This document shows, one piece after another, positions 1-19,220 of a DNA stretch of 64,000 nucleotides. Source of the stretch: Candidatus Kerfeldbacteria bacterium. GTDB lineage: Bacteria > Patescibacteriota > Patescibacteriia > UBA10025 > JAHIVO01. The notes beneath the pieces were generated by a model. The model did not search any database, was not told the DNA's origin, and saw nothing but the letters and a program-made list of their open reading frames with translations. The position numbers were made by a program, and so were the translations under genes. Position 1 is the first letter of the stretch; each line of letters starts with the position of its first letter. The DNA lies in contig CP181398.1 of assembly GCA_047946875.1 (NCBI GenBank), positions 1,169,329 through 1,233,328 of the forward strand, written 5' to 3'.

Positions 1-1249
1 TGATAAGGATTTTATTTTATTCATTAATAATGAACCGTTTAATAAAAATCCAGCCGCAGTAGAACGTAACATTTGTTCATCATCTTCTTGCATAACTTCT
101 TTTAGTGCGTCAAAGGCCGTTTGTTCACCATCTAGATTTTCAAAATTTTGTTGATAATACCCCACCTTAATTTCTTCGGGGATAATTATATGTTCTGATT
201 TATTTTCGATAATCATATTTAATAATGTGCTTTTCCCAATACCATTAGGTCCGGAAACTAAAGCATGCATATCTTTTCGTAATAAAATATCAATTTTCTT
301 TTCTACAACCTTATTTTTTTTCATGGCTGTAATGGAGGTAATGTGTAATATTTTTCCATGGAAATGATCATCAAATTCTTGCATTGGAATTGTAAATGGG
401 CGAATTGTTTTATCTCCTTGTCGAACATCAACAAGATTTTCTTTTGCTTCAGCTGCTGATTCTCTCATGCGTTTTGCTACACCACGTAGTTTACCGCCTT
501 TGTGTGCGAACACTTCTGCTTGAGCTGTTTTTTCTTTTATTTGTCTTTGCATGCGTGCATTTAAAAGATTTTCTCTTTCTATACGTGCCTCAATTTCTTC
601 TACTACGTCGTTATAGTTTCCAGTGTATTGTTCAACTTTTTTTGTATGTACGTCAAGGTATAGAACACCATCAGAAAAAGTATTTAGAAATTCTGCATCA
701 TGTGATATTACTAAGACAGTTTTTTCATACATTATTAAGAAGGTAGTCAGATGGTCTATGCCATCTTGATCAAGATTGTTTGTTGGTTCATCTAATAGAA
801 GTAGGTCAGGTTCTTGGATCAAAGCATGAGCTAAAAGGAGTCTGGCATGTTGACCACCAGATAGTTCTTTAATATATTTTGTGATTGGTACTGATAAATT
901 CACTACTTCTAAAACGTCGTTAATCATTTTATCCAATGAGTATTGCTTATCTTCGAAGGCAGTAGCAAAATATTCTTGGATGGTTAGATCTAACATTTCT
1001 TTTGGCATTACTTGTCTTGCAATGGCGACTGTAGCATCTTGCGGTGAACGTGATACTTGTCCCTCGATAGGTTTGAGCTCTCCTGTGATTAATTTCAACA
1101 TAGAACTTTTACCAGCGCCATTTTGACCCATCAGAGTTATTCTATTTCCTGAGCGAACTGAAAAATTTACTTCATCAAGTAATTTTTTACCGTGTTCATA
1201 TTCAAATGTTACGTCTGAGAATCTAAGGACGACGTTGTTGTCTGCCATA
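1..1249 (-). CDS. ABC-F family ATPase with two ABC domains and no transmembrane domain; partial, runs off the window start
   Basis: Minus-strand translation begins MADNNVVLRFSDVTFEYEHGKK. It has two Walker A motifs (GQNGAGKSS, GPNGIGKST), the LSGGQ signature and LLLDEPTN. No stop codon before the window edge. Confidence 0.85.
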
Positions 1250-2056: not shown

Positions 2057-3847
2057 ATGAGATTAAGAATAATTTTATCAACATTAGTCATTATCTTATT
2101 TATAGGTTGGCCGTTGACCGCTTTTTTGCGTTCAGCGCCTAATCAACCAATAAAACAAAACCTTTTGGACTCAGAGGTTAGTATTGAAAAATATATACAG
2201 ACGATGTTATATCCAAACACGCCATTCAAGGATTTTAATTCTGATGCTCCTTGGGTACATAGAGGAGGTTTGGATGAACAAATACCAATAATTTCATTTA
2301 TCAAGGATGCACATCTTGATAGTATAGGTTTGGATTATGTGGCTTTTTATAGATTGAATCCAGAGCAATTAGTAGCTGTTTATAATCCATCTGGTCTGGT
2401 AACTATAGATTCCCCTTTTTGGTATATAAGTCTCAATAACTTGACTCCGAATGATTTGGGATTAAATTACGGAGATGATCTGCAAATACGAATTAATATT
2501 AGGTTTAGGGATCAACTAATTTATCATACTTATAAATATTATCTTTCAATAGCTATACGTGGATCATTACCACAGCAGGATGGATGGTATCGTGGAGATA
2601 TCCATCATCATACTTTTTTTACTTCCGATATTTTTGAATACGGAGGATTTCCGGAATTTGACGTGAAAGCTGCAAAAGACATCGGTATGGATTGGATTGC
2701 TTTCACTGATCACTCTTATGATGTATCGGCTTCGGAGTGGGAAAATTTGAAAACTACTGCTCAAGAAAATTCAACCGACGATTTTATTGTACTTCCGGGT
2801 ATGGAATTTTCAGTTGATAATAACAATTCAAATGATTTGGTGGATGATAGAGTTCATTTGTTAGGATTGGGATTTGACAGTTGGATATCAGGACCTGATA
2901 TTGTTCCGGGATTTGATGTTTTTGGTTCACAACCAAGGGTTATGACAGATATTTTGGATGATATAGAAACACAAGGAGGAGTTTCATATGCAGCTCATCC
3001 ATTATCAGAAATTACAGCATTGTCAAACTGGGGATTTATTAAGCCTTGGTCATCTACTAATTATACCGAAGCATTCGATTATGAATCTTTTGTAGGAATG
3101 GAAATTTTTAACAGACGTCAGACGTCATTTAATAACACGGGAATTACAACTGACAATGTAAATCCATTCCCATGGAGTTTGAATTCCAATTGGGATACGG
3201 AATGGCAGGATGGAATTACTAAGTTCAATCAATTAGTAGGAGATAATTTGGACAGGAAAATATTTTTTTCCGGTGGTGCTGATGCACATGGAGATGCGAA
3301 TTTTGAAACAAGTAATAATTATGGATTGGTGGATGTTGCTGCAAATAACAATGCATTAGGTAAGGTTCATACAGTAGCTTATTTACCGAACGGTTTGAGC
3401 CAAGAAAACTTGTTATATGCATTAAAAAACGGCCATTCTATAGTAAGTGACGGGCCGTTAGTAAATATGAGTGTCAGAAGATCAGGGGGGTGTAGTAGCT
3501 GGACAGTAGGAAATATTGGAGATCGTATTAATTATAGTGGTAGTGACAAGTTATTAATTAGTGGGAAATCATCAGATGAATTCGGAGGATTGGAAACTGC
3601 TACAGTGCATATAATCAATTCGCTCGGACATAGTACGGAAAATTTTTCTTTCTCTGGAAATTATGATTTCCAAACATTATTATTATTTTCATTAAACCAA
3701 ACTGACACTTTCGCAGTTTGGACAGAAGTGGAAACCTCTTTAGGTTATAGGAGTTTTTCAAATCCTATTTGGTTTAATTTACCGGATTCCGCATTTAATT
3801 ATGATATTGTGGATCCATATCCGGTTGTTAATCAAAATTGTTATTAA
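2057..3847 (+). CDS. secreted or membrane-anchored PHP-domain metal-dependent phosphoesterase
   Basis: N-terminal hydrophobic segment. PHP motifs GDIHHHT..SD, FTDHS and LPGMEF..HLLGLG. 596 aa. Confidence 0.65.
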   Translation: MRLRIILSTLVIILFIGWPLTAFLRSAPNQPIKQNLLDSEVSIEKYIQTMLYPNTPFKDFNSDAPWVHRGGLDEQIPIISFIKDAHLDSIGLDYVAFYRLNPEQLVAVYNPSGLVTIDSPFWYISLNNLTPNDLGLNYGDDLQIRINIRFRDQLIYHTYKYYLSIAIRGSLPQQDGWYRGDIHHHTFFTSDIFEYGGFPEFDVKAAKDIGMDWIAFTDHSYDVSASEWENLKTTAQENSTDDFIVLPGMEFSVDNNNSNDLVDDRVHLLGLGFDSWISGPDIVPGFDVFGSQPRVMTDILDDIETQGGVSYAAHPLSEITALSNWGFIKPWSSTNYTEAFDYESFVGMEIFNRRQTSFNNTGITTDNVNPFPWSLNSNWDTEWQDGITKFNQLVGDNLDRKIFFSGGADAHGDANFETSNNYGLVDVAANNNALGKVHTVAYLPNGLSQENLLYALKNGHSIVSDGPLVNMSVRRSGGCSSWTVGNIGDRINYSGSDKLLISGKSSDEFGGLETATVHIINSLGHSTENFSFSGNYDFQTLLLFSLNQTDTFAVWTEVETSLGYRSFSNPIWFNLPDSAFNYDIVDPYPVVNQNCY

Positions 3848-3922
3848 AAATAGTAACTTTACGATATAAATTAAATATGATAAACTATTTTAAAACCAAA
3901 GAGTTTTTATAACGGAGGTATT

Positions 3923-4098
3923 ATGAAGTGTGGCAATTGTAGTGGGACGGGTAGAACATATTGGGGTACATGCAATAAGTGCCATGGAAAAGGAAGATGC
4001 GGAGGGAAAAGAAAAAGTAAATCCCGACGTGTTTTACGGGGAAAGGCCCGTAGACATCCGCTTTCAGTAGCTAAGAGGAAACGCCGTTGGGCGTTATA
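3923..4098 (+). CDS. small Cys-rich zinc-ribbon protein with a highly basic tail (58 aa)
   Basis: Translation MKCGNCSGTGRTYWGTCNKCHGKGRCGG... has two CxxCxGxG motifs. GGAGG SD 6 nt upstream and a terminator hairpin immediately downstream. Not in the ORF track because it is under 60 aa. Confidence 0.5.
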
Positions 4099-4104
4099 AA
4101 TTAT

Positions 4105-4138
4105 CAAGCCCTGTCTATTGATAGGGCTTTTATTTATT
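4105..4138 (+). terminator. rho-independent terminator
   Basis: Stem aagccct / agggctt followed by a T-run. Confidence 0.6.
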
Positions 4139-4328
4139 TATATTTGTTTTTTAAATTTTACGCTTCTGGAGCAATAAAATTACGAGCAATCCATTTGCAT
4201 GCTAGTCAGGTATATACTAGAGCACGAGTTGGTGAACATGGAGAAAAAGCATCCAGGCAATTTTTTACACAGGAGACTTTTACTCAGATATATCCTAAAA
4301 TAAATAAAATGATTAATTTGTAATAATT

Positions 4329-4454
4329 TTAGATTTTACCTTTTCTCTTTTTTGCCTTCTCTTCAAGCATAATCCTCTTTGCTTCGAGTCTTTTTGCTGT
4401 TTTGTGAGACTTAGTCTTTTTTTTCTTACCTACTCCCGTAGCTCTTTTTGCCAT
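4329..4454 (-). CDS. small lysine-rich basic protein (41 aa), possibly ribosomal-protein-like
   Basis: Minus-strand ORF MAKRATGVGKKKKTKSHKTAKRLEAKRIMLEEKAKKRKGKI, convergent with the Cys-rich gene. Confidence 0.35.
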   Translation of the reverse strand: MAKRATGVGKKKKTKSHKTAKRLEAKRIMLEEKAKKRKGKI

Positions 4455-4581
4455 ATATATTTTATTTAATAATATTACTTATCGTATATCATTGGGTGAA
4501 ATAATGCAATAAAAAAGTTTTATTAGATTATAGGTATATGATAAACTTAATGTAGGAGGTTAAGTTATTAATAGTATAAAT

Positions 4582-4902
4582 ATGGAAGAACAAAACCAAA
4601 AACAACCAACTCAGCAGCAATCAGTACTGCAGTCCGAGGAACACAGAAAAGGAAAAATTAATTTTTCACAAGCATTCTCCAAGTTAAGTAAATATTCTAA
4701 AAGATTTTTTATTGTTTGTGAATTATTACTTGCTATAGTTGTAATATTATACTTAATGTATGAATATACCCCCTCCTGGTCTGGTTGGGTTGAATTTGTT
4801 CTGCTGTCGTATTTTTTATTTATTGTAAATATTATATATTTAATAGCAATTATTATTTTTCTCTTAACACATAAAAATTATAATGGATTGTGTGTGTGGT
4901 AG
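4582..4902 (+). CDS. small membrane protein; paralog of the 5520 gene (shared MEEQNQK N-terminus)
   Basis: Two predicted TM segments. Shares an upstream sequence motif with the 5207 gene. Confidence 0.5.
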   Translation: MEEQNQKQPTQQQSVLQSEEHRKGKINFSQAFSKLSKYSKRFFIVCELLLAIVVILYLMYEYTPSWSGWVEFVLLSYFLFIVNIIYLIAIIIFLLTHKNYNGLCVW

Positions 4903-5070
4903 GTTTTATATACTATTTGTTAATACCTATTATTCTAATTACATCAGTGGTATTTTTTAACTGGTACTGGAACTATTTTTAAAGAATTATTTTTTTATAA
5001 AAAAATAAAAACACCTCACGAGAGAATAAGATGTTTTTTCTTGGAGAGACATCTAAATACTCAGTTATTT

Positions 5071-5110
5071 TCCCAGGTGGCTATCGTAAGATTATTCGAA
5101 CCCCACATTC
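5071..5110 (-). pseudogene. tRNA-His-like 3' fragment (degenerate)
   Basis: ggtggcta...gattattcgaacccc parallels the tRNA-His 3' half ggtggctagagggaatcgaaccc. Confidence 0.35.
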
Positions 5111-5206
5111 TGCGGGACAAGCCAATCTCAAAATCATTGAGGTTTTATTGGATTTTGGGTATATGGTAGACTTAATATAGGAATTTAAGTTATTAATAGT
5201 ATAAAT

Positions 5207-5509
5207 ATGAATTTAGGTACAACAAACATAATTTTTATAATTATATTATCATTACTTTCGATAGTTTTGGTTATATATATAGCATATTTATTTTTTAGAG
5301 TTAAAAAAGATGATAATAATAATCAAAAGACACTATATAGGTTTTTGAATTATAAACAAGTTATTACAATTGTTGTAATAGTATTGTTGGCCTTCACAAT
5401 AACAAAGGTGTCTAAAAGTTGGGAAAATTTTATATTACCATTTTATCTTCTTATTATTTTAATAATATTAGGAGTAATAGTAATTCCAAAATTATCAAAT
5501 AAAAAATAA
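5207..5509 (+). CDS. small membrane protein (100 aa)
   Basis: Two hydrophobic helices. Conserved upstream motif gattttgggtatatggtagactta. Confidence 0.5.
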   Translation: MNLGTTNIIFIIILSLLSIVLVIYIAYLFFRVKKDDNNNQKTLYRFLNYKQVITIVVIVLLAFTITKVSKSWENFILPFYLLIILIILGVIVIPKLSNKK

Positions 5510-5519
5510 AGGTGTAAAT

Positions 5520-5951
5520 ATGGAAGAACAAAATCAAAAACATACAACATTTCAGCCAGAAGAACCTAAGAATAAAACTTTTAAAAAAATAAAAATCTTT
5601 AGTAGATGTGTATGGGGATTATTTTCAGTTCTAATTGTTTTAAGGAATCTATTTGGCATCGAAATTCCTTTTATAATATTTCAATTTATTGCTTCTATTT
5701 TTTTTATAAGCGGGGTTTTTTCTTTTTGGGTGTTTGCTAACCGTGGAATTAAAGATGTTCGTTTACTTGTTAAATTTCAACTTTGGCAATATTTTTATAT
5801 TGCCTCTGTAGTATTACTAGGTATTTTTACTGCAAATCCTGATGTTAATCAGATGGATGTATTAATATTTTCTATGATTTTTGTTACGTATCTATTGGGA
5901 GAAGCGGCTAATTATTACGAAAAAAAGACTGAGGCTTCAGAAAAAAAATAA
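5520..5951 (+). CDS. membrane protein (143 aa); MEEQNQK paralog
   Basis: N-terminus MEEQNQKHTTFQ is similar to the 4582 ORF. 3-4 TM helices. Confidence 0.5.
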   Translation: MEEQNQKHTTFQPEEPKNKTFKKIKIFSRCVWGLFSVLIVLRNLFGIEIPFIIFQFIASIFFISGVFSFWVFANRGIKDVRLLVKFQLWQYFYIASVVLLGIFTANPDVNQMDVLIFSMIFVTYLLGEAANYYEKKTEASEKK

Positions 5952-6128
5952 AACAAAACTTTTTAAAGATTGGAAATTTTGGGTGTGGGTAATAATTGTC
6001 CTATTGGTTGCTGCTTTTATTATATATAGTAGTTGATAATTATAATGCCACAAAAGGATTTAATTAAAGTATATTAAAAAATTCTGCTTATCGGCAGGCA
6101 GGCACCTTAAGAGGCGGGATTTTTTGAT

Positions 6129-6236
6129 TGGGGTCGGATAGCCCGTCCGCCACAGCTTCGCCGTAGGCGTGCCGGGCGGGCTGTTTACCCCGTCCTTCAT
6201 GGAAGGCGGGGTAAATTTTAGAACTTATTTATTAAG
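6129..6236 (-). pseudogene. tRNA-His-derived repeat copy carrying two GC-rich hairpin insertions
   Basis: tggggtcggatagc..ctgtttacc..ttagaacttattta matches the uninterrupted copy at 11281-11322. This copy has extra 38-nt (6143-6180) and 22-nt (6190-6211) GC hairpins. Confidence 0.6.
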
Positions 6237-6250
6237 AGGTGTTTTATTAT

Positions 6251-7048
6251 TTATTTTTTCAATTCAACTACATCAAGTGTGCGATTATAAATCGATGCTG
6301 TCTGGCCGGCATCAACATTCCAGCCAACCTGAAAAGTATGTGATCCAGCAGTAACATCTACCAAGGCATTGAAGGCCATGTTAAATGGACCGCCGGAAGA
6401 AGCGGCAGTTCCTCTTCTAATGGTGTGATCAACTATTGTCCCATCAACAATTAAAAAAGTCCTGGCTGAAACAAAGTCATTATTAATACTAAATACCCCA
6501 CTGAAATTAATTAATACGGTGCTGGCGCCAGTTGTAACAACAATAGTTTCATCTAAAATATCATAATTTGGGGAATTTTGTGTTGTTGTATCCGTAGTTG
6601 TTCCATAAGCTTCACTCGTTTGAGTTATGGCGCCGGCTGCAATATTGGTAGATGTTACTATCCCTGTCCCCATCAAACTTCCCACCGTCAATGATCCGAT
6701 TACTTCCATATTATCATTTACGATAAATGGCATGGTATCACTTGTCCCAGCTGTAGCACCACGCCAAACACGACCGTCTATTCTTACATTATCTCCAAAG
6801 GTCACAGGGTTATCAACACTATTGGTTGTTGTATCGTTTACAATAGAGCCGTTAAAGTAAGTTACTCCTCCAATATCCTGTTCCCCGATCATAATTGAAC
6901 GCATTTTCATAGTTCCATCAACTTGATAAATATCTCCTTCCGGTCCAAATTGGGAGGTGACATTGTGTGTGGCCGCAGCATTTACAATCCCCACCGTTAA
7001 TGCGATGGAAATGATCACTACCAACGATGTTATTAGTTTTTTGTTCAT
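6251..7048 (-). CDS. secreted surface protein, family member A (shares its N-terminal module with the 15173 and 16160 genes)
   Basis: Signal peptide MNKKLITSLVVIISIALTVGIVNA. About 130 aa are near-identical to paralogs B and C (HNVTSQFGPEGDI.QVDGTMKMRS...). The C-terminus is unique. Confidence 0.7.
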   Translation of the reverse strand: MNKKLITSLVVIISIALTVGIVNAAATHNVTSQFGPEGDIYQVDGTMKMRSIMIGEQDIGGVTYFNGSIVNDTTTNSVDNPVTFGDNVRIDGRVWRGATAGTSDTMPFIVNDNMEVIGSLTVGSLMGTGIVTSTNIAAGAITQTSEAYGTTTDTTTQNSPNYDILDETIVVTTGASTVLINFSGVFSINNDFVSARTFLIVDGTIVDHTIRRGTAASSGGPFNMAFNALVDVTAGSHTFQVGWNVDAGQTASIYNRTLDVVELKK

Positions 7049-7066
7049 AAATTTTATGTTTAATGA

Positions 7067-7294
7067 TTATTTATCTTTACACTCTTTGAATATTGTGTCA
7101 CTAGTGCAATCAATATTAGTGCATGGCACCAGTACGCTTAAGCAACTGTCGTCCATTTTGCATTCTTGTTCATTTAATTCAGAGCAAGTTTTACTTCCGG
7201 TAAACAGTATCACGGCGCCAATGATTAATATGATTATGACAATTATTATAATTATATTTTTATTCATATTTTTTCTTATAAATCTAAAATCCAT
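7067..7294 (-). CDS. small membrane-anchored Cys-rich protein (75 aa)
   Basis: Ile-rich TM helix followed by a Cys-rich tail CSELNEQECKMDDSCLSVLVPCTNIDC. Confidence 0.4.
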   Translation of the reverse strand: MDFRFIRKNMNKNIIIIIVIIILIIGAVILFTGSKTCSELNEQECKMDDSCLSVLVPCTNIDCTSDTIFKECKDK

Positions 7295-7479
7295 TCCAGC
7301 AGTTCAATTTGTTTTTCCAGTAATTTTTTCTTATATTTCATTTTAATTTTCCAATCTTTTTCGAAAGAATGGCTATCTTCATCAACTTCCTCTTCCATTT
7401 CTTCTACTTCCTCGTTAATTTCTTCCAGTTCTAATTCCAATTCATCTAATTTGTCTGTAATTTGTTCTTGATTTTTCAT
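7276..7479 (-). CDS. small acidic coiled-coil protein (67 aa)
   Basis: ELELELEEINEEVEEMEEEVDE heptad-like sequence. Overlaps the next gene's start. Confidence 0.35.
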   Translation of the reverse strand: MKNQEQITDKLDELELELEEINEEVEEMEEEVDEDSHSFEKDWKIKMKYKKKLLEKQIELLEWILDL

Positions 7480-7491
7480 ATTTTTTAAAAA

Positions 7492-8376
7492 TTAAAGCTC
7501 TGTAATATAGGTAACAAATATTTCATTATTATCAACTGGATTTATAATTCCTTGCACTATTACAGTTGAGTCTTCATCGAAGAGGTTATTAGTCATGGCA
7601 TCTGTACATTTTGGACGGCTGAAACCTTTTATACATGTACTAATAAAGTCCATAGTATCAAATGTCAATTTTTTATTTAAGGCTGGGCTACCTGGTTCAT
7701 CCCATACTAAGTTCCAATAATTTTCACCGGCTGGTTGAGATAGGTTTCCGCTTTGTTCAAAATCAGTTACCAAAGGATTAATAAATTCAAAATTATTAAG
7801 CATATTTTCTTGAATGTTTGAGTTAGTAGTATTAAGTTCTTGGGTAGTTGAACCCCAAGAAATGCGGTACATATAATTATTATTTGTGACATAGACTGTG
7901 GCACCTGTATCATTCTCATGAGTGTTTCTGGTTAATTTTATGCCATTTTCACCATCAACTTTAATATTTGTTTTTTGATAACCGTCTTGTTCTAACAATC
8001 CAATCTCTGACCAGGTTTCCAATGTTTCACCTGATAGGTCGGCTACATAAATAAAAAAACTGGAATATTTGTAGTCAGATATATCAGCTACACTGGCAAA
8101 TGAGTTGGTGGCGGGTGGAGGAGGACCAGTTACTGCGTCCGGTATATAAAACCAACTGGTTGGATAATCAACTGTGAAATGATAGTTATTGTTGATGAAA
8201 GTTTTCCATTCTGTAACTTTATTTGTATTATTATTGGATATAGGGGAAATGTTTAGATTGGTATTGTCTTCCACATTTTGATCTTGGTTTACTAGATACC
8301 AGGTGAGTCCCCCGCCTAGAATTAAGATTACGAGTATTATAATGAAAATACTACTAACCCCATTTTGATGTTTCAT
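7492..8376 (-). CDS. membrane-anchored secreted protein with an N/T-rich linker
   Basis: N-terminal TM anchor, low-complexity NT linker, then a globular domain. Confidence 0.6.
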   Translation of the reverse strand: MKHQNGVSSIFIIILVILILGGGLTWYLVNQDQNVEDNTNLNISPISNNNTNKVTEWKTFINNNYHFTVDYPTSWFYIPDAVTGPPPPATNSFASVADISDYKYSSFFIYVADLSGETLETWSEIGLLEQDGYQKTNIKVDGENGIKLTRNTHENDTGATVYVTNNNYMYRISWGSTTQELNTTNSNIQENMLNNFEFINPLVTDFEQSGNLSQPAGENYWNLVWDEPGSPALNKKLTFDTMDFISTCIKGFSRPKCTDAMTNNLFDEDSTVIVQGIINPVDNNEIFVTYITEL

Positions 8377-8384
8377 ATTTTTAA

Positions 8385-8954
8385 TTAATTTAATAAATTA
8401 TCTAAGTTTGTACAGTCTAGATATTCATCGTCCGTACAGCAACTTACATTATCATAGGTGCCGTCGGCTCTGTTGCACCAAGGTTGGTCAGAAGAACACT
8501 TTATTATTACTTTTTTTGTATCTTTATAAATAATTTTTTGTGGCCAAGACCACTCACAATAAAATTCTGCAGTTTGATCAATTTCACTATTAATGTTTGT
8601 TGTAACGGTATTAGTGTTGATTGTAGTATTTACATTTATTATAGCCTTATTAACATTAGTAGTGGTATTAATATTTATTACTTTTTCATCATCCTCTTTC
8701 TCTATTTCAATATTTGTTATATCTGCGATGATTTCATCTAATTCTTTTTGGGTTGGATCAAATCCTGTATCATTAGTACATTGTTCTGGACAATAGGTTT
8801 TGGATGAATCCATTATTAGTAAGTCATAACAAACCTCCATACATTTGGAGAATTGTCCTTTTTTTGTTACTCCACCTTGGGACCAGATCAATAACAAAAT
8901 CACACCAGCTATAATCACAATACCTAGGCTGATGAATATTTTCTTTTTATTCAT
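8385..8954 (-). CDS. membrane-anchored Cys-rich secreted protein with an N/T-rich repeat linker
   Basis: TM anchor, NTTTNVN repeats, multiple Cys pairs. Confidence 0.55.
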   Translation of the reverse strand: MNKKKIFISLGIVIIAGVILLLIWSQGGVTKKGQFSKCMEVCYDLLIMDSSKTYCPEQCTNDTGFDPTQKELDEIIADITNIEIEKEDDEKVININTTTNVNKAIINVNTTINTNTVTTNINSEIDQTAEFYCEWSWPQKIIYKDTKKVIIKCSSDQPWCNRADGTYDNVSCCTDDEYLDCTNLDNLLN

Positions 8955-9099
8955 AGTATTATATGAAAATTATTAGATATCCAATGTTCACTTATTATTA
9001 TAGCTAATATTAGTAGATACTTAAAGGGGCTGAAATTTTATTAGATTTTGGGTATATGGTAGACTTACTTTGGTAGGTTATATTATTAAGATATTTATT

Positions 9100-10212
9100 A
9101 TGAAAAATAAAACAATATTTATTGGATTTATAATAGGTGTAGGTATTTTACTATTGGCTGTGATTGGGAATTATTTTAGTAAGGATAATATGACGAAGGA
9201 TGAAGGTATTTTTTCAAATGTTGTCCAAGATAACATAATACAAAGTAACATTAATATATTAGAGGTATCAGATGTGCCAGAAGACTGTGATGTTGTTTTT
9301 ACCCATCGGTTTACAGATATTACAAAAATCAATGCTATCCAGCCAATTGGCTCTATCACCGGCGCTTCTCCTGGTCGTAGTTATTTGGATATTAAAGAAG
9401 GAGAAACTGTCCCGGTATACGCCCCAATGGATGCCACATTAAAATTTATTGCATATTCATATCGTGGCCCAGAGGCGCCTTACCCAGAATATGGTTTTAG
9501 TTTTGATACTGGTTGTGGGGTAACTTTTATGTTAGATCATTTGGACACAATATCGGATGAATTAAAGCAATATGCGCCTATTGAGCCTTCACTAGCAACT
9601 GACGGTACTAATAATCTTTCGGTTGAGGTTGAGGCGGGAACACTTCTGGGATATACTGATGGAACAGAACAGGCTAAAACTTTTGACTTTTTGGTAATAG
9701 ATAAAAATACTGACGTTTTTCATATTAATCCGGAACGATGGGACTGGGATCAAGCGTTGCATGCTGTCTGTCCGTATGATCTATATACAGATGATTTGAA
9801 AAGTGAGTATTATGAAAAAATTGGGACATATTATTACACAGGATTTGTAAAAGCAGAGAGCTGTGGTAATCCATCATACGATATTGTTGGAACAATTTCC
9901 GGTGGGTGGTTTTTGGGAGAAAACGATACGATGATGACTGGTGAGTTTATGACAATTGGCGAGGAGGGTGGTAATGTGTACACAATTGTCAAAAATAATC
10001 TGGAAGATGTAATAATACGCGTGGATGATTACTGGACAGAAGTCATGCCAAAAGATGTTAAGGTTGGGAGTTCAGCATGCTATTTTGACAACAACACAGA
10101 TACTTGGATGTTTTTGAATTTAGTAAGTGAAGAAACCATCCAGCTTGCAAATGGAAATGGGAATTGTCCTGTAGAGTTTCCAGATTCTAATATAAAGATT
10201 TATTCGAGATAG
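9100..10212 (+). CDS. membrane-anchored secreted protein
   Basis: ATG at 9100 (the ORF track's 9070 is a TTG). N-terminal TM segment. No family recognised. Confidence 0.55.
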   Translation: MKNKTIFIGFIIGVGILLLAVIGNYFSKDNMTKDEGIFSNVVQDNIIQSNINILEVSDVPEDCDVVFTHRFTDITKINAIQPIGSITGASPGRSYLDIKEGETVPVYAPMDATLKFIAYSYRGPEAPYPEYGFSFDTGCGVTFMLDHLDTISDELKQYAPIEPSLATDGTNNLSVEVEAGTLLGYTDGTEQAKTFDFLVIDKNTDVFHINPERWDWDQALHAVCPYDLYTDDLKSEYYEKIGTYYYTGFVKAESCGNPSYDIVGTISGGWFLGENDTMMTGEFMTIGEEGGNVYTIVKNNLEDVIIRVDDYWTEVMPKDVKVGSSACYFDNNTDTWMFLNLVSEETIQLANGNGNCPVEFPDSNIKIYSR

Positions 10213-10313
10213 TCTTTATTGGGGTCCCTATCGGTCGGTTAATTTAACTAACCTGATGAAGGTTTTGGGTGATTTTAGGTATATGGTAGGAATATTAAAG
10301 CAAGCCTCAGTAT

Positions 10314-11099
10314 TTATCTAAGGGACTCAATGCATCCTTCATCTGTTTCAATTGAACAAGATTCGCTTAATGTTGTTCCTCCACTAGTGATATCATATAA
10401 ATGTGTCCACACTGTACCGACGCCTGCATCACCAGCTGCGCACATATAGGTAATTACGTTAGTAGTAGACCAGTTTTTTATTGTGCTACATCCCTCATAG
10501 AATGATAAGCTGTGTTCTTCTGCTTTTGTGAAAGTATTTTCACTAATATTGTAAATTCCAAGTTGACTTGTACCGTATGAGTCCTTGTCAGGGTCGTAGC
10601 GATAGGGACTATCTTTTTGTGATTTTAAGTATATAGTTTTATTAAGCTCTTCATTAAAACATACAATATCAAGACCCCACCCTTCAATTATTTGGTCTGA
10701 GAATGTTTGATACCACAAATATTGATTAGTAAGTTCTCCTGGTTGTCTTGAACAACTAAGTTGATATGATGCTTCAGTAGCTTCAATAGAAAAGATGTTT
10801 GTTTCTGAAGTCGCATTTGTGTTTGTCGTTATCGGAGTAGTATTAGTATTTATTTCAGTATTTAAGTTAGTTGTGATATTTGCATTTGCTGTCGTATTAG
10901 TATTCAAATTTAGTGAGGTGTTTGTAACCGTATTTGTATTTGTTGTAGTAGTGGTAGTTGGTGTATTTGCTTCTTCCCTATTCTCCTCATAATACCAAGT
11001 AGCACCAACCAATCCTACGGCCATAACTGAGATTAGTATTACCACCACCCAACGCACATAACCTTTTTGATTTTTCATAGTTATAAATTTAATATTCAA
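10314..11099 (-). CDS. membrane-anchored surface protein with a TN-repeat linker
   Basis: TM anchor, TNTNTVTNTSLNLNTNTT low-complexity linker, Cys-containing C-terminal domain. Confidence 0.55.
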   Translation of the reverse strand: MNIKFITMKNQKGYVRWVVVILISVMAVGLVGATWYYEENREEANTPTTTTTTNTNTVTNTSLNLNTNTTANANITTNLNTEINTNTTPITTNTNATSETNIFSIEATEASYQLSCSRQPGELTNQYLWYQTFSDQIIEGWGLDIVCFNEELNKTIYLKSQKDSPYRYDPDKDSYGTSQLGIYNISENTFTKAEEHSLSFYEGCSTIKNWSTTNVITYMCAAGDAGVGTVWTHLYDITSGGTTLSESCSIETDEGCIESLR

Positions 11100-11165
11100 T
11101 AATTTAAGTATACCAAAAACGACCCTAATAACATATCTATAGGGTAACTTTTATAAAATGGGTGG

Positions 11166-11300
11166 TTAGACCTGCCTACCGGCAGGCAGGGGGAATTACG
11201 CGTCGCCTATTGGCTCGCTTCTACCCGTCCGATTCCCATTTTATCCCATATCAAAAAAAGTTCCACCATATAAATATGATAAAACTTTTTCTGGGGTCGG
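11166..11300. repeat. GC-containing repeat copy X1 (paired with 11735-11892), ending in a degenerate tRNA-His 3' end
   Basis: Shares gcaggcagg..cgcgtcgcc..ctcgcttcta.ccgt.cgattcc.attttr.cccatatcaaaaaaa..tttttctggggt with X2. Confidence 0.6.
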
Positions 11301-11425
11301 ATAGCTGTTTATCTTAGAACTTATTTAATGGATGGATTGGAGGTATATGGAGTGGTTAATAACATAGTTTAGTAGTTTGTGATATAATTAATACATAAAA
11401 AAGAATTAATATTAATTTTATTTAT

Positions 11426-11656
11426 ATGGGCGATCACGTAATTTTAAGATTTCCATTCGACGACCCTGACAATCCAGAGGTAGTTGATGTTCTGGCTAAT
11501 GTACCGGTTCATTGGAAAAAATATCTTAAAGAAATCGCACATAAGACAAAAAAACCAGGAAGATATATTGCGTCTAACATTCTTTATGATGACGAGTATT
11601 ACTATCCCGAGTCAATGGAAAAAAATCATAAAAAAATTGAAAAGGAATCAGAGTAA
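11426..11656 (+). CDS. hypothetical protein (76 aa) lying between the X1 and X2 repeats
   Basis: ORF MGDHVILRFPFDDPDNPEVVDVL... No SD and no family recognised. Confidence 0.35.
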   Translation: MGDHVILRFPFDDPDNPEVVDVLANVPVHWKKYLKEIAHKTKKPGRYIASNILYDDEYYYPESMEKNHKKIEKESE

Positions 11657-11734
11657 TTTTTGAATGATTCAAGACCAAATTATAGATAGTTACCAAAAAT
11701 ACCTCTTAATATTAAAGGCGTTTTTAGAAAAGCC

Positions 11735-11892
11735 GGCAGGGAGAATTTCGCGTCGCCAAAGGCTCCTTGTCCTGGGTAGCGACCCCGCGGTGCGGGGTCG
11801 ACTCTTGCCTTCGTCTCGCTTCTATCCGTTCGATTCCTATTTTGCCCCATATCAAAAAAATTTCATCATCTACAAGGGATAATAAAATTTTT
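11735..11892. repeat. repeat copy X2 directly abutting the tRNA-His 3' end
   Basis: Homologous to 11166-11300. Carries an extra GC hairpin segment (gggtagcgaccccgcggtgcggggtcgac). Confidence 0.6.
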
Positions 11893-11968
11893 CTGGGGTG
11901 GCTAGAGGGAATCGAACCCTCATAGCTGGTTCCACAAACCAGTGCACTAACCGTTGTGCTATAGCCAC
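11893..11968 (-). tRNA. tRNA-His (GUG), with G-1 and 3' CCA encoded
   Basis: Cloverleaf by eye. Anticodon loop TTGTGGA. G-1 is present. Confidence 0.85.
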
Positions 11969-12085
11969 CACGTTGATTTTACATTCCAGGTTACGTATCT
12001 CCGCATTCGCGAATTTACTCCACCTTTCATGTAAATCTGCCTTTCCTCACACATCTGTGCTCATTTTATTGCGCTCCTGATGTGT
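11969..12085 (-). promoter_or_regulatory. divergent member of the conserved tRNA-upstream element family
   Basis: Resembles the tRNA leader repeats at 18922, 19362, 46160, 47269 and 48647. Confidence 0.35.
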
Positions 12086-12112
12086 TCGGGATGTTTAATG
12101 TAAAAAATCAGT

Positions 12113-12199
12113 TGGTGCGGACGGAGGGACTTGAACCCTCACGCACAAAAGTGCCTAGGCCCTCAACCTAGTGCGTATACCAATTCCGCCACGTCCGCC
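12113..12199 (-). tRNA. tRNA-Leu (GAG), long variable arm, CCA encoded
   Basis: Anticodon loop TTGAGGG. 87 nt with an extra arm. Confidence 0.85.
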
Positions 12200-12216
12200 G
12201 GCCATTTATGTTAAAA

Positions 12217-12561
12217 CTATTTTTTAACTTTAGTCTCTTTTAGTCGTTTCTTATAATCTTTTAAGAAGTATAGTTTTGCTCGACGTACTTTAGCTTTTTT
12301 AACAATCTCAATTTTTGAGATTGAAGGAGAATTCAAAGGAAATATTTTCTCTACACCAATACCTTCGGAAATCTTTCTTACAGTAATAGTGGAAGTTAGA
12401 CCTTTACCACCGCGTCGTGATAGGACCATTCCTTCAAATTTTTGGATACGCTCTTTTTCACCTTCTTTAATTTTTTGATGAACAATAACGGTGTTACCAG
12501 CACTGATATCTGGCAAATCTTGTTTTACTTTTGATGTATTCAGTGAATATGCAGTTACCAT
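12217..12561 (-). CDS. rplS: ribosomal protein L19
   Basis: The sequence is L19-like (MVTAYSLNTSKVKQDLPDISAGNTVIVHQKIKEGEKERIQKFEGMVLSRRGGKG...). Confidence 0.9.
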   Translation of the reverse strand: MVTAYSLNTSKVKQDLPDISAGNTVIVHQKIKEGEKERIQKFEGMVLSRRGGKGLTSTITVRKISEGIGVEKIFPLNSPSISKIEIVKKAKVRRAKLYFLKDYKKRLKETKVKK

Positions 12562-12626
12562 AGTTTCTATTTATCTAATAATTATAATTTAAGTAGTTAT
12601 AATAATAGCGATTACAAGCTTTATTG

Positions 12627-13610
12627 TCAAGACTTTTTGAGGTTATTTAGAATATTTTGAAGTTTTTCTGGTAAAGGGAGGGTAAATTCTACCCATTTAC
12701 CATCCAAATCTGTAAAACCTAAGTATTGGGCATGAAGAAAAATTCTACTCATCTTTATTTTGGTTTTAAGTTTTTTTGGTTTATAAACTAGATCCCCAAC
12801 TATTGGTAGGCCATAAGCATTAAGGTGAACGCGGATTTGATGAGTTCGACCGGTTTTTGGCATAATCCTTAATAATGTATAGTTGCCAATATTTTCCAAT
12901 ACTTCAAATCCAGTAATTGATTTACGTCCCCTCTCTTCATGTTCTGGGACAGCTGCCATTTTGAAATCTTTTGTTTCACTACGACTAATATTAAAATTAA
13001 TTTCATCTTCATTCTTTTGAGGTGTGCCATATACTAATGTGATATATTCTTTTTTTATAGTTCTTTCTTTGAATTGGGATTTCAGATGGTCGAACATGTC
13101 TTGTGTCTTTGCTACTACTATCAAGCCAGATACTTCCCGATCAAGCCTATGTACGATACCGGGGCGGATTGGGTTCTCTCCAACTTTTTTTATTTTGGGA
13201 TATTTTTTTACTAGTTGATCAGCAAGAGTTATTTCATTGGTACCATCTGCTTCATGTATCAATAGTCCAGCTGGTTTGTTTACTATTAAATAGTTTTCCG
13301 TTTCAGTAATGATATTTAATTTATGTTGAGCAGGTTTAAATATATTAGTTATTTTTTTTAAAGAGGAAGTAACAAAATTTTCTTGGGAAGTTGTGTTAAT
13401 ATCATTTGTTGTCGTAACTGGTTTATTATCTGTGATAATAATATCACCTTCTTTTAAGAATTTATGGACTACTGCTGACTTATTATTAACCAGGATTGTT
13501 TCATTTTTGATAAGTTTTTGAATTTGGGATCTTGTGATGTCTAATTTTCCTGTCAAAAATTTATCAAGTCTTTTGCCAGCATCATCTTTTGTGATTGAAT
13601 ATCTATTCAT
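12627..13610 (-). CDS. RluA-family pseudouridine synthase (RluD/RluC-like) with an N-terminal S4 domain
   Basis: The catalytic motif HRLDREVSGLIVVAKT is present. The N-terminus has an S4-like segment. Confidence 0.85.
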   Translation of the reverse strand: MNRYSITKDDAGKRLDKFLTGKLDITRSQIQKLIKNETILVNNKSAVVHKFLKEGDIIITDNKPVTTTNDINTTSQENFVTSSLKKITNIFKPAQHKLNIITETENYLIVNKPAGLLIHEADGTNEITLADQLVKKYPKIKKVGENPIRPGIVHRLDREVSGLIVVAKTQDMFDHLKSQFKERTIKKEYITLVYGTPQKNEDEINFNISRSETKDFKMAAVPEHEERGRKSITGFEVLENIGNYTLLRIMPKTGRTHQIRVHLNAYGLPIVGDLVYKPKKLKTKIKMSRIFLHAQYLGFTDLDGKWVEFTLPLPEKLQNILNNLKKS

Positions 13611-15057
13611 ATTTTTTTATATAATCAAAGGATTGTTTTTTAGTTTTAATATTACCTTTGAGTTGTTCTTCTCTTAGAGCATTTTTAATCTTACCAATTT
13701 TGGCTCCAGGTTTTATTTTGAGTGCTTTCATTATTTCATTACCGTTAATTAATTCTTTTGGTAGTACTTTTTTGTTTCTAGAAATTTTTTCTAATGCTTC
13801 TACTTGTTTAACAATTTTGTTGAAATCTTTAAAATTTGGTTGGCCATCTTTTGGTATAGTAGCTTGTATATCAGCGAAAGTTAGTTTGAGTAAATTATGT
13901 CCAGGAACATTCTCATTAAAAAAGTATTTTTCGAGTGTAGTTTTTTTCATGGGAGATTTTTTTGTGTGGGTAGAGATCATATGTTTGCTACATAGCCACA
14001 CAATATTTTCTGCTTTGATTCCAGCGCTGGATAATTTTAATCTTTTTATAATTTCGTCGGTTATTTTTGCACCAACTGTATCGTGATTATTAAATCTAAG
14101 TCTATCAGACCTCTCTATAGTATAGGGTTTACCAATATCATGAAAAAGGGTAGCAAATACTAATTCAGCATCAAGTTTTTCATTTTTATATTTTGTAGTA
14201 AATTTTTTTGAACTTAGATTTTGTAAACATAATAAAGTGTGTTTCCATACATCACCTTCAGAATGGAAATTCCTTGGTTGGGGACATTTCTTCATTTTTA
14301 ACAATTCTGGCATTAGCGCTTTGGTTAAACCGCTCTTGTCATAAAGTTCAAAAGCTAAGGCAGGATTAGCGACGAAAGCTTTAGTCATTTCTTTTGCAAT
14401 AGTTTCTCTAGGAACTAAAAATTCTCCTTTTACTTTTTTATTAATTTGAGGAGTTAATTTTTTTATTGCTGACCAAGTAGCATTATCGATTTTGAAATTT
14501 AGTTGGCAAGCAAAACGAATAGCTCTTAATATTCTTGAGTAGTCTTCTTTGAACCGTTCAGTTGCTAATCCAACAGTTTTAATGTTTTTCTTTTTTAAAT
14601 CTTTGAGCCCATTAAATAAATCAATAATTTCTTTTTTATTAATGTCGTAAGCTAAAGCATTGATCGTGAAGTCACGCCTTTTTAAATCTTCTTCGATTGG
14701 CAGATTTGGATCTGATTGGATATCAAAATCTTTATAGCCACCAGTTAGGAAAGCGTGTTCAGTACGAGGTAGGGCAATGTCGAGAGGTTCTTTTAGAGTA
14801 GAGTTTTTGGGCATAAATTTAAGTACGCCGAATTTTTTACCTACTATATCTACCCAGCCAAGAGTTTTAAGAAATTTAAGAAGTTTATTGACTGATACAT
14901 TACGTATAACAAAATCATAGTCTTTTGATTCTCGCCCAATAAGACTATCGCGAACAATCCCCCCAATTAAAAAAATTTCGGCTTGTGGAATTTTTTTTTG
15001 AAGATGTTTAATAGAAGAAAGTTCTTTTTTTTGCAATAAAGATGTAATTTGTTTCAT
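13603..15057 (-). CDS. cca: CCA-adding tRNA nucleotidyltransferase with an HD domain
   Basis: GGIVRD nucleotidyltransferase motif and HD motif LFHDIGKP. Confidence 0.8.
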   Translation of the reverse strand: MKQITSLLQKKELSSIKHLQKKIPQAEIFLIGGIVRDSLIGRESKDYDFVIRNVSVNKLLKFLKTLGWVDIVGKKFGVLKFMPKNSTLKEPLDIALPRTEHAFLTGGYKDFDIQSDPNLPIEEDLKRRDFTINALAYDINKKEIIDLFNGLKDLKKKNIKTVGLATERFKEDYSRILRAIRFACQLNFKIDNATWSAIKKLTPQINKKVKGEFLVPRETIAKEMTKAFVANPALAFELYDKSGLTKALMPELLKMKKCPQPRNFHSEGDVWKHTLLCLQNLSSKKFTTKYKNEKLDAELVFATLFHDIGKPYTIERSDRLRFNNHDTVGAKITDEIIKRLKLSSAGIKAENIVWLCSKHMISTHTKKSPMKKTTLEKYFFNENVPGHNLLKLTFADIQATIPKDGQPNFKDFNKIVKQVEALEKISRNKKVLPKELINGNEIMKALKIKPGAKIGKIKNALREEQLKGNIKTKKQSFDYIKKYE

Positions 15058-15172: not shown

Positions 15173-16045
15173 TTAGTATATTGCCAGCATAAATACACCA
15201 TCGGCAGGATTTTCATCTTTATCATGTTCCCAAACTAAAACGGTATTTGGATCAGATGCATGAGGAGCAGCGCCAATTAATCTAATAGCAACAGCACCGC
15301 CTGTACCACTTGGAGTAGCGATGTAAGCTCTAGTTGGTGTACCTGAACCATTATTTACAGCAAAATTGAAAGTTACTTCATATCTACCATTGCCAGTATT
15401 TGTGGCAGCAGTAGCATTATATCCACTAGTTAACGTACCTCCTGAACTAACATAGGCCCATCCTTTTAATGCTCCTTCAGCAGATACGGCCTGGGTGATG
15501 TTACCAGTAGTAGTGACTGTGTCAATACTAAGATCGGCAGTTGAGGATATATCGCTTCCAGTGATGGTTCCATCGACAATTTTAGCTGAGGTAATTGCAT
15601 TATCAGCAATGTCAGCGGTGGCAATTGTAGCATCAGTAATATTGTCAGATGTTACTATCCCAGTACCAAGTAAACTTGCTACTGTTAATGATCCAGTAAC
15701 TTCCATATTGTCATTGACAATAAATGGCATTGAATCTGCAGTACCAGCTGTTGCTCCGCGAAAAACACGTCCATCTATACGGACGTTATCACCAAAAGTA
15801 ACGGGATTGTCTACTCCGGCGTTTGTTGTGGTATTGATTATAGATCCATTGAAGTAGGTTACTCCACCTACACCCTGTTCACCGATCATCGTTGATCTCA
15901 TTTTCATTGTCCCATCTACTTGAAATATGTCTCCTTCTGGTCCAAATTGTGAAGTGACATTGTGACTAGTTGCAGCATTGACTATCCCAGCTGTCAAAGC
16001 AATAGAAGCAACTACCACTACGAGGGTTAAAAGCTTTTTTTTCAT
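15173..16045 (-). CDS. secreted surface protein, family member B
   Basis: The N-terminal 150 aa are near-identical to the 16160 and 6251 genes. ITDATIATADIADNAITSAKIVDGTITGSDI repeats. Unique C-terminus. Confidence 0.7.
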   Translation of the reverse strand: MKKKLLTLVVVVASIALTAGIVNAATSHNVTSQFGPEGDIFQVDGTMKMRSTMIGEQGVGGVTYFNGSIINTTTNAGVDNPVTFGDNVRIDGRVFRGATAGTADSMPFIVNDNMEVTGSLTVASLLGTGIVTSDNITDATIATADIADNAITSAKIVDGTITGSDISSTADLSIDTVTTTGNITQAVSAEGALKGWAYVSSGGTLTSGYNATAATNTGNGRYEVTFNFAVNNGSGTPTRAYIATPSGTGGAVAIRLIGAAPHASDPNTVLVWEHDKDENPADGVFMLAIY

Positions 16046-16117
16046 AGGCCTTTTCCTTGTTTAGTTGTTAAATTGATAAATAATCACGATTTTATTATAC
16101 CCTTTTTTTGATAAACA

Positions 16118-16152
16118 AAAAACCGCCCTAGTTGATAGAGGCGGTTTTTTCA
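16118..16152. terminator. bidirectional rho-independent terminator
   Basis: aaaaaaccgccc...gaggcggtttttt. Confidence 0.6.
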
Positions 16153-16159
16153 AAAGTTT

Positions 16160-17077: not shown

Positions 17078-17108
17078 AAATTTTATTCTTTCATTATTAA
17101 TATATTAT

Positions 17109-18332: not shown

Positions 18333-18431
18333 ATTTTTTTATATAAATAGTTATTTATATTATGTTTTTATTATACTATTTTATGGAAATAAAAACACCC
18401 CATTTCATTAGTGTTAAGGAAATTGGTTGTT

Positions 18432-18575
18432 TGGTGGGACGTAGAGGATTTGAACCTCTGACCGTTTGCTTCCCGCCTTTCGGACGGGACAAGTAAGAGG
18501 CAACTTTATCCCGCTAAGAATTGGCGGGATGCTCTACTTTACCCCGCCTATTAAAGGCGGGGCGAGCTGAGCTAA
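18432..18575 (-). pseudogene. 5'-truncated tRNA-Lys copy interrupted by three GC-rich hairpin insertions
   Basis: Matches tRNA-Lys positions 9-76 exactly except for three inserts. One sits in the D-loop (18537-18565), one after the D-stem (18505-18529) and one between anticodon-loop positions 37 and 38 (18472-18493). Confidence 0.7.
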
Positions 18576-18803: not shown

Positions 18804-18842
18804 AAAATTTCCCTTTTATTATTTATTAGAAGGGAAGGTTTT

Positions 18843-19020: not shown

Positions 19021-19038
19021 TATTATTTATTATAGGAA

Positions 19039-19204: not shown

Positions 19205-19220
19205 CGTCTGCCATCGCCAA

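Follow-up and report, generated by a model that had tools for sequence, protein, structure and literature searches.

A lineage-variable island of anchored and secreted proteins at the tRNA-His gene of a Candidatus Kerfeldbacteria chromosome

Results

The stretch of DNA analysed here, referred to as the window, is 64 kb (64,000 nucleotides, nt) of a chromosome of Candidatus Kerfeldbacteria, a tiny-celled bacterium of groundwater that belongs to the Patescibacteria (candidate phyla radiation, CPR); the window has a GC content of about 33% and 11 tRNA genes dispersed over its length. Towards its left end a tRNA-His gene (anticodon GTG; 11894-11968, minus strand, CCA encoded; found by ARAGORN and by Rfam at 68.9 bits) separates a conserved block of genes from about 7.4 kb of DNA, positions ~4455-11893, whose cargo consists almost entirely of membrane-anchored or secreted proteins. 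This island, with the tRNA gene as its anchor and attB-like site, is the subject of the present report. The conserved right flank, all on the minus strand, comprises tRNA-Leu (GAG; 12113-12198; ARAGORN and Rfam) and three genes identified with Pfam within 12217-15057: rplS (12217-12561), an rluD-like pseudouridine synthase gene (12627-13610) and the gene for the CCA-adding enzyme (cca, 13603-15057). Open reading frames (ORFs) of the window were annotated with Pfam, NCBIfam and PHROGs, tRNA genes with ARAGORN and Rfam, and a repeated GC-rich module, described below, with nhmmer. Relatives were sought with L19 at one genome per GTDB species, where L19 identity was at most 77-78%, and genome and metagenome scans with L19 yielded none closer than 80% identity. 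The closest relative, L292, was reached through an RluD protein search (87% identity); this and the other L-numbers denote the fetched relative loci or contigs that were compared with the window.

A sequence-only reading of this DNA had proposed an accessory island at tRNA-His and a synteny comparison as the way to check it, and that comparison bears the proposal out. The block cca-rluD-rplS-tRNA-Leu-tRNA-His is colinear in all relatives compared (L001-L011 and L292), and its rplS-rluD-cca core in L001-L013 and L292, whereas past tRNA-His the gene order is conserved in no relative and the content is different in each. The variable DNA begins at 11893, one base past the CCA of tRNA-His. Beyond that point, five relatives (L003, L005, L006, L009 and L010) have no detectable homolog of the island. 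L002 carries genes similar to those at 10314, 6251 and 7067 (genes are named here by their first coordinate) 4-7 kb beyond tRNA-His, in changed order. The L164 contig, which starts at the tRNA-His 3' end, has partly related, rearranged content, with homologs of 6251 (63% identity), of the N-terminus of 10314 and of the adjoining pair 8385/7492 (46% and 39%), this pair being inverted relative to the tRNA.

The contig of L292 is colinear with window 14630-11894 at 82.3% nt identity over 2.7 kb, and its homology with the window stops at 11894, the final base of tRNA-His. Directly past this base a large serine recombinase (Pfam Recombinase, 6e-17; Zn_ribbon_recom, 2.5e-11) is encoded on the other strand, and the C-terminal end of its gene overlaps the end of the tRNA. 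In this lineage, then, the 3' end of tRNA-His serves as an integration site. Four further contigs (L001, L007, L008 and L090) terminate 0-200 nt past tRNA-His, L081, which is 100% identical to window 12198-15051, terminates at tRNA-Leu, and L162 terminates near window 4309. Contig ends at tRNA-His/tRNA-Leu in independent metagenome assemblies suggest strain heterogeneity or repeats in many populations. In L090 (950-1210), two tandem tRNA-Leu(GAG)-like genes, the second preceded by a long GC hairpin, lie before tRNA-His, and this doubling is a further sign of rearrangement at the tRNA genes of the clade.

The left border is better placed at ~4455 than at 5071, because the ORF at 4582-4902 bears the same repeated 5' module as the genes at 5207 and 9100. 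The left anchor is then a gene for a very basic, Lys/Arg-rich protein of 41 amino acids (aa) (4329-4454, minus strand), the first for which a relative has a counterpart. A copy identical at 95% of aa and 85% of nt lies 4.4 kb past tRNA-His in L003, and another of about 65% adjoins the homolog of 9100 in L289; it is only via this gene, in L003, that the left flank is common to relatives. The variable zone may extend left of it, since the ORF at 2057-3847 (plus strand), for a 596-aa protein with an N-terminal transmembrane (TM) segment and a PHP-type CehA/McbA metallohydrolase assignment (NCBIfam, 84 bits against a cut-off of 80), has no homolog in any fetched relative locus. The ORF at 3923-4099 (plus strand) encodes a 58-aa, very basic CxxC-type zinc-ribbon protein and is followed by a clean terminator hairpin at 4106-4129; neither of the two tiny basic proteins, 4329-4454 and 3923-4099, matches a family. 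Window 700-1240 was tried as a left anchor in L005 and L006 and rejected, being an ABC-F ATPase gene with matches of 26-30% that are generic to ABC proteins.

The bias of the cargo towards TM-anchored and secreted proteins that had been noticed earlier is confirmed: ten ORFs between 4582 and 11099 encode a signal peptide, multiple TM segments or a hydrophobic anchor at the N-terminus, whereas elsewhere in the window, over 44 kb, about three proteins have an N-terminal anchor. The N/T-rich linkers are there as well, with N and T together making up 20-27% of 6251-7048, 7492-8376, 8385-8954 and 10314-11099. Pfam, NCBIfam and PHROGs gave almost nothing for these ten proteins. Going inward from tRNA-His, the first ORF (11426-11656, plus strand) encodes an acidic protein of 76 aa without a family match and is the sole ORF between the repeat copies designated C and B below. 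It is followed by a gene for a 261-aa protein (10314-11099, minus strand), anchored by a TM segment at its N-terminus, in which a T/N-rich linker (27% N+T) leads to a C-terminal domain that contains Cys; the N-terminal part of the protein is similar to genes in L002 and L164. On the plus strand, a 5' module at 9024-9106 leads into the gene for a 370-aa anchored protein (together 9024-10212; true start ATG at 9100). Then come, on the minus strand, an anchored Cys-rich protein of 189 aa with an N/T-rich linker (8385-8954; 5.3% Cys), whose homolog in L164 stands next to that of 7492; a 294-aa anchored protein with an N-rich linker and a weak PsbP_2 match (7492-8376); and the small Cys-rich and acidic pair that had been noticed before (7067-7479), in which a 75-aa anchored ORF with 8% Cys (7067-7294), present in similar form in L002, overlaps a 67-aa acidic coiled-coil-like ORF (7276-7479). 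Next to them is the gene for a 265-aa secreted fibre-like protein (6251-7048, minus strand). The outer end of the island, on the plus strand, holds a 5' module (5132-5212) with two small multi-TM proteins (5207-5509 and 5520-5951; together 5132-5951) and another (4511-4588) with a 106-aa protein that has C-terminal TM segments (4582-4902; together 4511-4902).

The 5' module is about 70 nt long and has four copies in the window, all of them inside the island; the fourth is a solo copy without a gene behind it (10251-10320, plus strand). Copies are also found in L005 and L289. Its position points to a promoter, and a sigma-70 promoter scan of it scored no better than shuffles. A paralogous relationship between 4582 and 5520 was rejected, as only the 5' module and the first seven codons are in common, and so was a relationship between 7492 and 17109, which show no significant similarity.

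Two of the cargo proteins, 6251-7048 and 9100-10212, have no Pfam or NCBIfam match and yet have recognisable folds, at sequence identities of only 10-19%. The AlphaFold model of 9100-10212 (pLDDT 85.6) places a LytM/M23-like domain behind the membrane anchor, followed by a C-terminal beta-sandwich, and Foldseek matches it to Csd1/Csd2, lysostaphin, SpoIIQ and LytM (probability 1.0, E ~1e-3). Because the family has a single invariant His, catalytic M23 activity is doubtful, and the modelled domain may bind rather than cut. The 6251-7048 protein has a signal peptide, an N-terminal stalk and a C-terminal domain resembling TNF-like and tail-fibre receptor-binding domains. Its N-terminal half, modelled at low confidence, is the part conserved in and common to the paralogs at 15173-16045 and 16160-17077, while the confidently modelled C-terminal jelly roll matches tail-fibre receptor-binding domains, the lectins BC2L-C and PLTL, and Pgp3 (E 1e-6 to 1e-4, probability 1.0). 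Repeats in the paralog at 16160 match tail-fibre PHROGs. From these models we infer that the 6251 family may be one of secreted fibre-like adhesins or lectins with exchangeable heads. The suggestion of surface or host-interaction cargo thus gains some support from predicted folds, the TNF-like/tail-fibre jelly roll of 6251-7048 and the LytM/M23-like domain of 9100-10212, and the cargo is likely to be variable cell-surface equipment of an episymbiotic cell.

Repeats derived from tRNA-His lie within the island. Directly after tRNA-His is a GC-rich sequence of about 190 nt, copy C of the module (11720-11893, minus strand; nhmmer 161.7 bits), made up of the tRNA-His terminator hairpin, an anti-T-loop GGAATCGAAC, and a GGATAG...CTACCC helix around a GC hairpin. 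At its distal end, to ~11701, it has a direct but degenerate copy of the 3' end of the tRNA. It is repeated with an internal deletion as copy B (11155-11310, minus strand; 99.9 bits), which starts with a degenerate tRNA-His 3' end CTATCCGACCCCAG (a damaged CTAGCCACCCCAG), a terminator and the anti-T-loop GGGAATCGGAC, and ends with a direct copy that reads AATTCCC, a 20-nt perfect palindrome (11171-11190) and TCTAACCACCCA. Alignment to copy B reveals a decayed copy A (6084-6143), followed by two GC hairpins (6144-6215; together 6084-6215, minus strand). Copy A keeps a palindrome remnant, an A-run and GCTATCCGACCCCA; it has 14-nt blocks in common with B, including the identical 6130-6142 and 11293-11305, and the two copies have a common left flank, ..AAGTTCTAA..AAACAG.CTATCCGACCCCA. 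The outermost att-like copy is a tRNA-His 3'-half remnant (T-loop and acceptor 3' strand) at 5076-5102, on the minus strand in the same orientation as tRNA-His, retaining the T-loop GGGTTCGAAT and the 8-nt acceptor strand TAGCCACC and interrupted by about 5 extra nt.

The two His-like fragments reported earlier, at 5071 and 6129, are not called as tRNA by ARAGORN or by Rfam (E<=5) and are not demonstrable alone. They are nevertheless real remnants in context, because 6130-6142 belongs to the decayed module copy and 5076-5102 fits a two-block pattern, GGTGGCTA..WTCGAACC. This pattern, which was designed post hoc after 5076-5102 had been seen, matches only the true tRNA-His and that fragment, with no match in 100 shuffles. 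Every tRNA-His-derived repeat is directly oriented, a pattern suggestive of insertion in steps at the 3' end of the tRNA. The repeats cut the island into units of one small ORF (11701-11311), seven genes (11154-6144) and two genes (6083-5103), and the ORF at 4582-4902 lies beyond the outermost relic.

The module recurs behind tRNA genes of the relatives. By nhmmer it follows tRNA-His in L001, L004, L005, L010, L090 and L164, tRNA-Lys in L002, L006, L009 and L163, tRNA-Leu in L008, L089 and L094, and tRNA-Arg in L094, and in close relatives it is always on the tRNA strand. In the direction of the tRNA, the tRNA 3' end is followed, in the His type, by a terminator hairpin and T-run; then come an exact complement of 7-14 nt of the T-loop and T-stem of the module's own tRNA, GGGCAG, a variable GC hairpin, CTGCCC and AGGAC(C), and finally a direct copy of the tRNA from T-loop to acceptor end (13-70 nt), which in L002 and L094 includes downstream flank. 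The anti-T-loop complementarity is seen in 11/13 modules and with five different T-loop sequences (His, Lys, Leu, Arg). In seven Lys/Leu/Arg modules 94% of cells pair, as opposed to 26-46% with the partner strand slid; the outer helix has compensatory changes in five cells across two pairs, and in the inner helix CG is replaced by UA in both the window copy and L005. Rfam at gathering score found no match in seven loci with good module copies, and at E<=10 it returned nothing meaningful for two module copies, as was also the case for window 3800-12300. A loose module pattern in IMG/VR gave 120 high-GC chance matches, none confirmed by nhmmer, and a stricter one gave 3 chance matches; viral copies may nevertheless exist. 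The rise in GC-hairpin density ascribed earlier to the whole island is an enrichment mainly at the module copies and by tRNA-Arg/Lys, and is not island-wide. As RNA, the module may be a structured 3' trailer of the tRNA.

The palindrome within copy B, CCTGCCTGCCGGCAGGCAGG (20 nt), occurs in perfect or near-perfect form at window 11171-11190, 6084-6102 and 48520-48539, at 3147-3166 of L163, and in the Patescibacteria loci L070, L080, L106, L123 and L157. In copy B (His) and in L163 (Lys), different as these tRNAs are, it interrupts the direct copy of the 3' end at an equivalent point.

Comparison of cassettes between relatives bears on their movement. L003 has the layout tRNA-His, two genes, module, two genes, module, and L004 has tRNA-His, module and then the first two-gene cassette of L003. 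This cassette is 88% identical in nt and 92-95% in aa between the two genomes, whose core genes (cca, rluD, rplS and a fourth) have 67-76% nt and 56-80% aa identity. Within L003 the two internal modules are about 93% identical, and the adjoining paralogous cassette proteins 37%. Cassette-like units bounded by module or att-like copies are thus found in the window, L003 and L004, in each case without flanking integrase or transposase genes.

Contig L289 carries a homolog of 9100-10212 (82% identical in aa, 82.7% in nt) whose gene neighbours are otherwise different. Homologs that are 55-57% identical occur in DPANN archaea (Nanoarchaeota and Woesearchaeota; L290/L291), and one of these is truly archaeal, because its contig carries STT3, aEF1A and ribosomal S10. 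The gene is patchy in distribution, and its archaeal homologs indicate that two groups of episymbionts share it across domains. More than 230 proteins, often several per genome and all from Patescibacteria, make up the 6251 family, and the occurrence of four cargo families at the same locus in relatives argues that much of the cargo is old in the lineage. A blastn search of the island against phages (50,697 phage records) and plasmids gave no match. Taken together, the native composition of the island (see Discussion), the spread of the 6251 family and the patchy occurrence of 9100-10212, with its DPANN homologs, point to cargo that is in part long resident and shuffled and in part laterally exchanged, even across domains. 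The proposed lateral acquisition accordingly appears to be piecemeal, as in 9100-10212 and the L003/L004 cassette, and a recent acquisition is unsupported by composition or by mobility or phage genes.

The nearest recombinase gene, 7.5 kb outside the island and beside tRNA-Arg and tRNA-Lys, encodes an Xer-like tyrosine recombinase (19516-20397, minus strand; Pfam). NCBIfam models for XerD, XerA and XerC score about 150 bits with it, under their cut-offs. Syntenic homologs are present in L163 (63%) and L003 (42%), and none at this position in L005, L006 and L009.

A second variable stretch (15173-18919, minus strand) lies on the other side of the conserved block. It contains the two 6251 paralogs (15173-16045 and 16160-17077), an anchored 407-aa protein (17109-18332), a pseudo-tRNA-Lys (18430-18590), a GIY-YIG ORF (18534-18803) and tRNA-Lys (18843-18919), and the region up to cca, 15173-18332 in the window, varies among relatives from 0.5 to 4.5 kb. 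The pseudo-tRNA-Lys is nearly full-length, is broken by three CCCGCC..GGCGGG hairpins and is entered by the last codons of the GIY-YIG ORF; its last 42 nt, 18430-18471, match the 3' part of tRNA-Lys exactly, in agreement with the copy read there earlier. The tRNA-Arg gene (19220-19293) has no CCA and is separated by an 18-nt linker from a fragmented copy of its own 3' two-thirds (together 19030-19293), which is split by three GC-rich hairpins, again of the CCCGCC...GGCGGG kind, and has CCA at its end; a layout with a similar linker occurs in L163 (2380-2760) and L006 (2604-2960). Upstream of tRNA-Lys and tRNA-Arg lies a 114-nt sequence, 90-94% identical between 18919-19032 and 19362-19475, with shorter copies (47270-47299 and 48704-48723) ahead of tRNA-Gly and close to tRNA-Phe/Ile; the sequence probably serves these tRNA genes as a common promoter or leader. 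Elsewhere in the window, a 16S rRNA gene (49208-50698, minus strand) is followed by tRNA-Ile, tRNA-Phe and tRNA-Pro (48387-50698), and a 23S rRNA gene is absent from the 64 kb, so the rRNA genes are unlinked.

Discussion

We suggest that 4455-11893 is most plausibly a flexible genomic island of the additive type (as defined in PMC4033161), built by insertion at the 3' end of tRNA-His and carrying surface-protein cargo. What is established is the conserved right flank, an interior that is different in each relative, and the direct, damaged copies of the tRNA-His 3' end together with the modules. On this insertion model, the tRNA segment from T-loop to CCA would serve as the attachment site for site-specific recombination, and each insertion would bring a gene cassette with its own tRNA 3' end, terminator and module, restoring the tRNA end and terminator and pushing older copies inward. 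The displaced copies would then decay, from C (11720-11893) through B (11155-11310) and A (6084-6143) to the remnant at 5076-5102. The recombinase would act in trans, and could be the Xer-like enzyme of 19516-20397 or be supplied by transient elements such as the serine recombinase element of L292, with later deletion, inversion and recombination among the repeated 5' modules shuffling the cassettes. The cargo so assembled would include a trimeric-fibre-like adhesin or lectin with a TNF-like head, a LytM-fold protein that binds or cuts the wall, and small Cys-rich anchored proteins.

Several observations weigh against this insertion model. No recombinase, integrase, transposase or excisionase was found among the island ORFs with Pfam, NCBIfam or PHROGs, and the Xer-like recombinase is tied to the island by proximity alone. 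The att-like copies are short and degenerate, and two of them are without significance of their own by plain alignment, the fragments at 5071 and 6129 giving Smith-Waterman scores of 14-16 to tRNA-His where the 90th percentile of random windows is 15; nor is the decay of the copies monotonic with distance from the tRNA. The codon-usage and k-mer analysis, from which a deviation had been expected, found none that sets the island apart: its tetranucleotide deviation from the window mean (z = 0.5-1.2) is like that of several other segments, and its codon chi2/df (0.7-1.9) is that of core genes, with GC3 just slightly raised. The families 6251, 7492, 8385 and 10314 recur past tRNA-His in relatives at 39-63% identity with order and orientation shuffled, which is comparable to or somewhat below the identity of core proteins and would also fit vertical descent with local rearrangement. 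The closest genome compared is at 82% nt identity, and at that distance none of the window's cassettes was seen as a presence/absence polymorphism.

The main competitor is a resident, fast-evolving surface-protein locus that changes by duplication, deletion, inversion and homologous recombination, without site-specific insertion, the tRNA-like pieces and modules being by-products of local tandem duplication of the tRNA-His trailer. Native composition and codon use fit it, as do the reordered or inverted homologs of the four families in L164 and L002, the 6251 paralogs at 15173-17077, the repeated 5' modules as substrates of homologous recombination, and flanking sequence common to copies A and B that extends past the repeat. 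Such a locus leaves unexplained that homology with L292 stops at the exact end of tRNA-His with a serine recombinase gene, that a cassette is 88% identical between genomes whose core is 67-76% identical, and that modules of L003 about 93% identical stand beside cassette proteins of 37%. We regard it as the less probable explanation, and one that keeps an appreciable share of the probability because the comparison is without a same-species genome.

Entry of a single integrative element or prophage at tRNA-His, followed by loss of its integrase and structural genes, appears improbable. It would account for an island that lies between tRNA-His and a directly oriented 3'-half remnant, has a serine-recombinase-bearing element at the same site in L292, and encodes a member of a family with a tail-fibre-like head and tail-fibre-like repeats. 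The internal att-like copies B and A, however, split the island into several units; no island ORF matches a PHROG, the only match being that of the outside paralog 16160 through its tail-fibre repeats; there is no DNA match to phages or plasmids; and the 6251 family, with its more than 230 members, is spread over Patescibacteria chromosomes, often with several per genome. That the architecture is an assembly artefact, with strain variants wrongly joined into a chimera during the reconstruction of a genome from a metagenome, is very improbable indeed. Short-read contigs of one metagenome do break at 12198, 15051 and ~4309, but these breaks fall at repeats, where short reads are expected to give out; four contigs on record, one of them of 1,309,938 bp, carry the same proteins; and the same kind of architecture is found in many independent assemblies.

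In its broad outline the Kerfeldbacteria island is a genuine tRNA-anchored flexible island with surface proteins, a known kind of feature. Coleman and colleagues are said to have described, in 2006, tRNA-flanked Prochlorococcus islands with repeated tRNA 3' ends. As in such tRNA-anchored or additive islands, the Kerfeldbacteria island is located at a tRNA 3' end between conserved flanks, its content varies cassette by cassette, the 3' end of the tRNA is partially repeated in direct orientation internally and probably at the far end, and the cargo is biased to the cell surface. Unlike them, it has no internal integrase or transposase, its composition is native, its cassettes have a shared promoter or 5' module, and its repeats are part of a GC-rich module, conserved and structured, of which such islands offer no described example. 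It also falls outside the prophages, no island ORF having a PHROG match (structural, replication or lysis). Its distinctive features are the lack of an integrase in cis and the delimitation by an undescribed tRNA-mimicking module.

With integron arrays the island has in common small cassettes between structured, imperfectly palindromic elements that resemble recombination sites, and a tyrosine recombinase encoded nearby; the two helices of the module, set apart by an asymmetric internal loop, and the variable hairpin at its distal end recall the R and L boxes of attC and its variable terminal structure. It differs in the lack of IntI (TIGR02249 gives 76.5 bits for 19516-20397, against a cut-off of 265), in a recombinase that is 7.5 kb off instead of adjoining the array, in an insertion point that is a tRNA gene, and in cassettes that lie in both orientations, with four strand switches and their own 5' modules (three genes). 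There are only 3 module copies for 11 genes, and the module sequence is unrelated to the attC consensus boxes. Host Xer recombinases are exploited through folded or mimicked sites by IMEX such as the CTX phage and by the pdif modules of Acinetobacter plasmids. Similarly, the ORF-less or recombinase-less units of the island would be moved by an Xer-family enzyme encoded elsewhere, and, as in IMEX, a module hairpin would recreate a double-stranded copy of the target. The differences are that the target here would be the T-loop and 3' end of a tRNA instead of dif, and that the Xer-like gene is linked to the island by proximity only.

As a tentative proposal, to which we assign a low probability, the GC-rich module could be an element without ORFs, or a recombination site, of an undescribed kind, with tRNA genes as its targets in this family of Patescibacteria. 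Folded as single-stranded DNA, it would form a double-stranded mimic of its own target, comparable to integron attC or CTX phage attP, that a tyrosine recombinase supplied in trans could use, and arrays of such sites would nucleate islands of surface-protein cassettes. A literature search on CPR islands, integrons and tRNA-targeting miniature elements found nothing specific.

The CPR, or Patescibacteria, are thought to live attached to host cells, which raises the question of which proteins make this contact and how these diversify. The locus described here offers a testable case, with a hotspot at tRNA-His and a second at tRNA-Lys at which surface proteins would be swapped between lineages, among them fibre-like adhesins, a LytM-fold protein and small Cys-rich anchored proteins, and with one hotspot gene common to DPANN archaea of the same kind of habitat. 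Should the module not be a recombination site, this would be an ordinary flexible island in an under-studied phylum. If it is one, it would represent a new type of folded or guided attachment site, and would explain the frequent breaks of CPR assemblies at tRNA genes.

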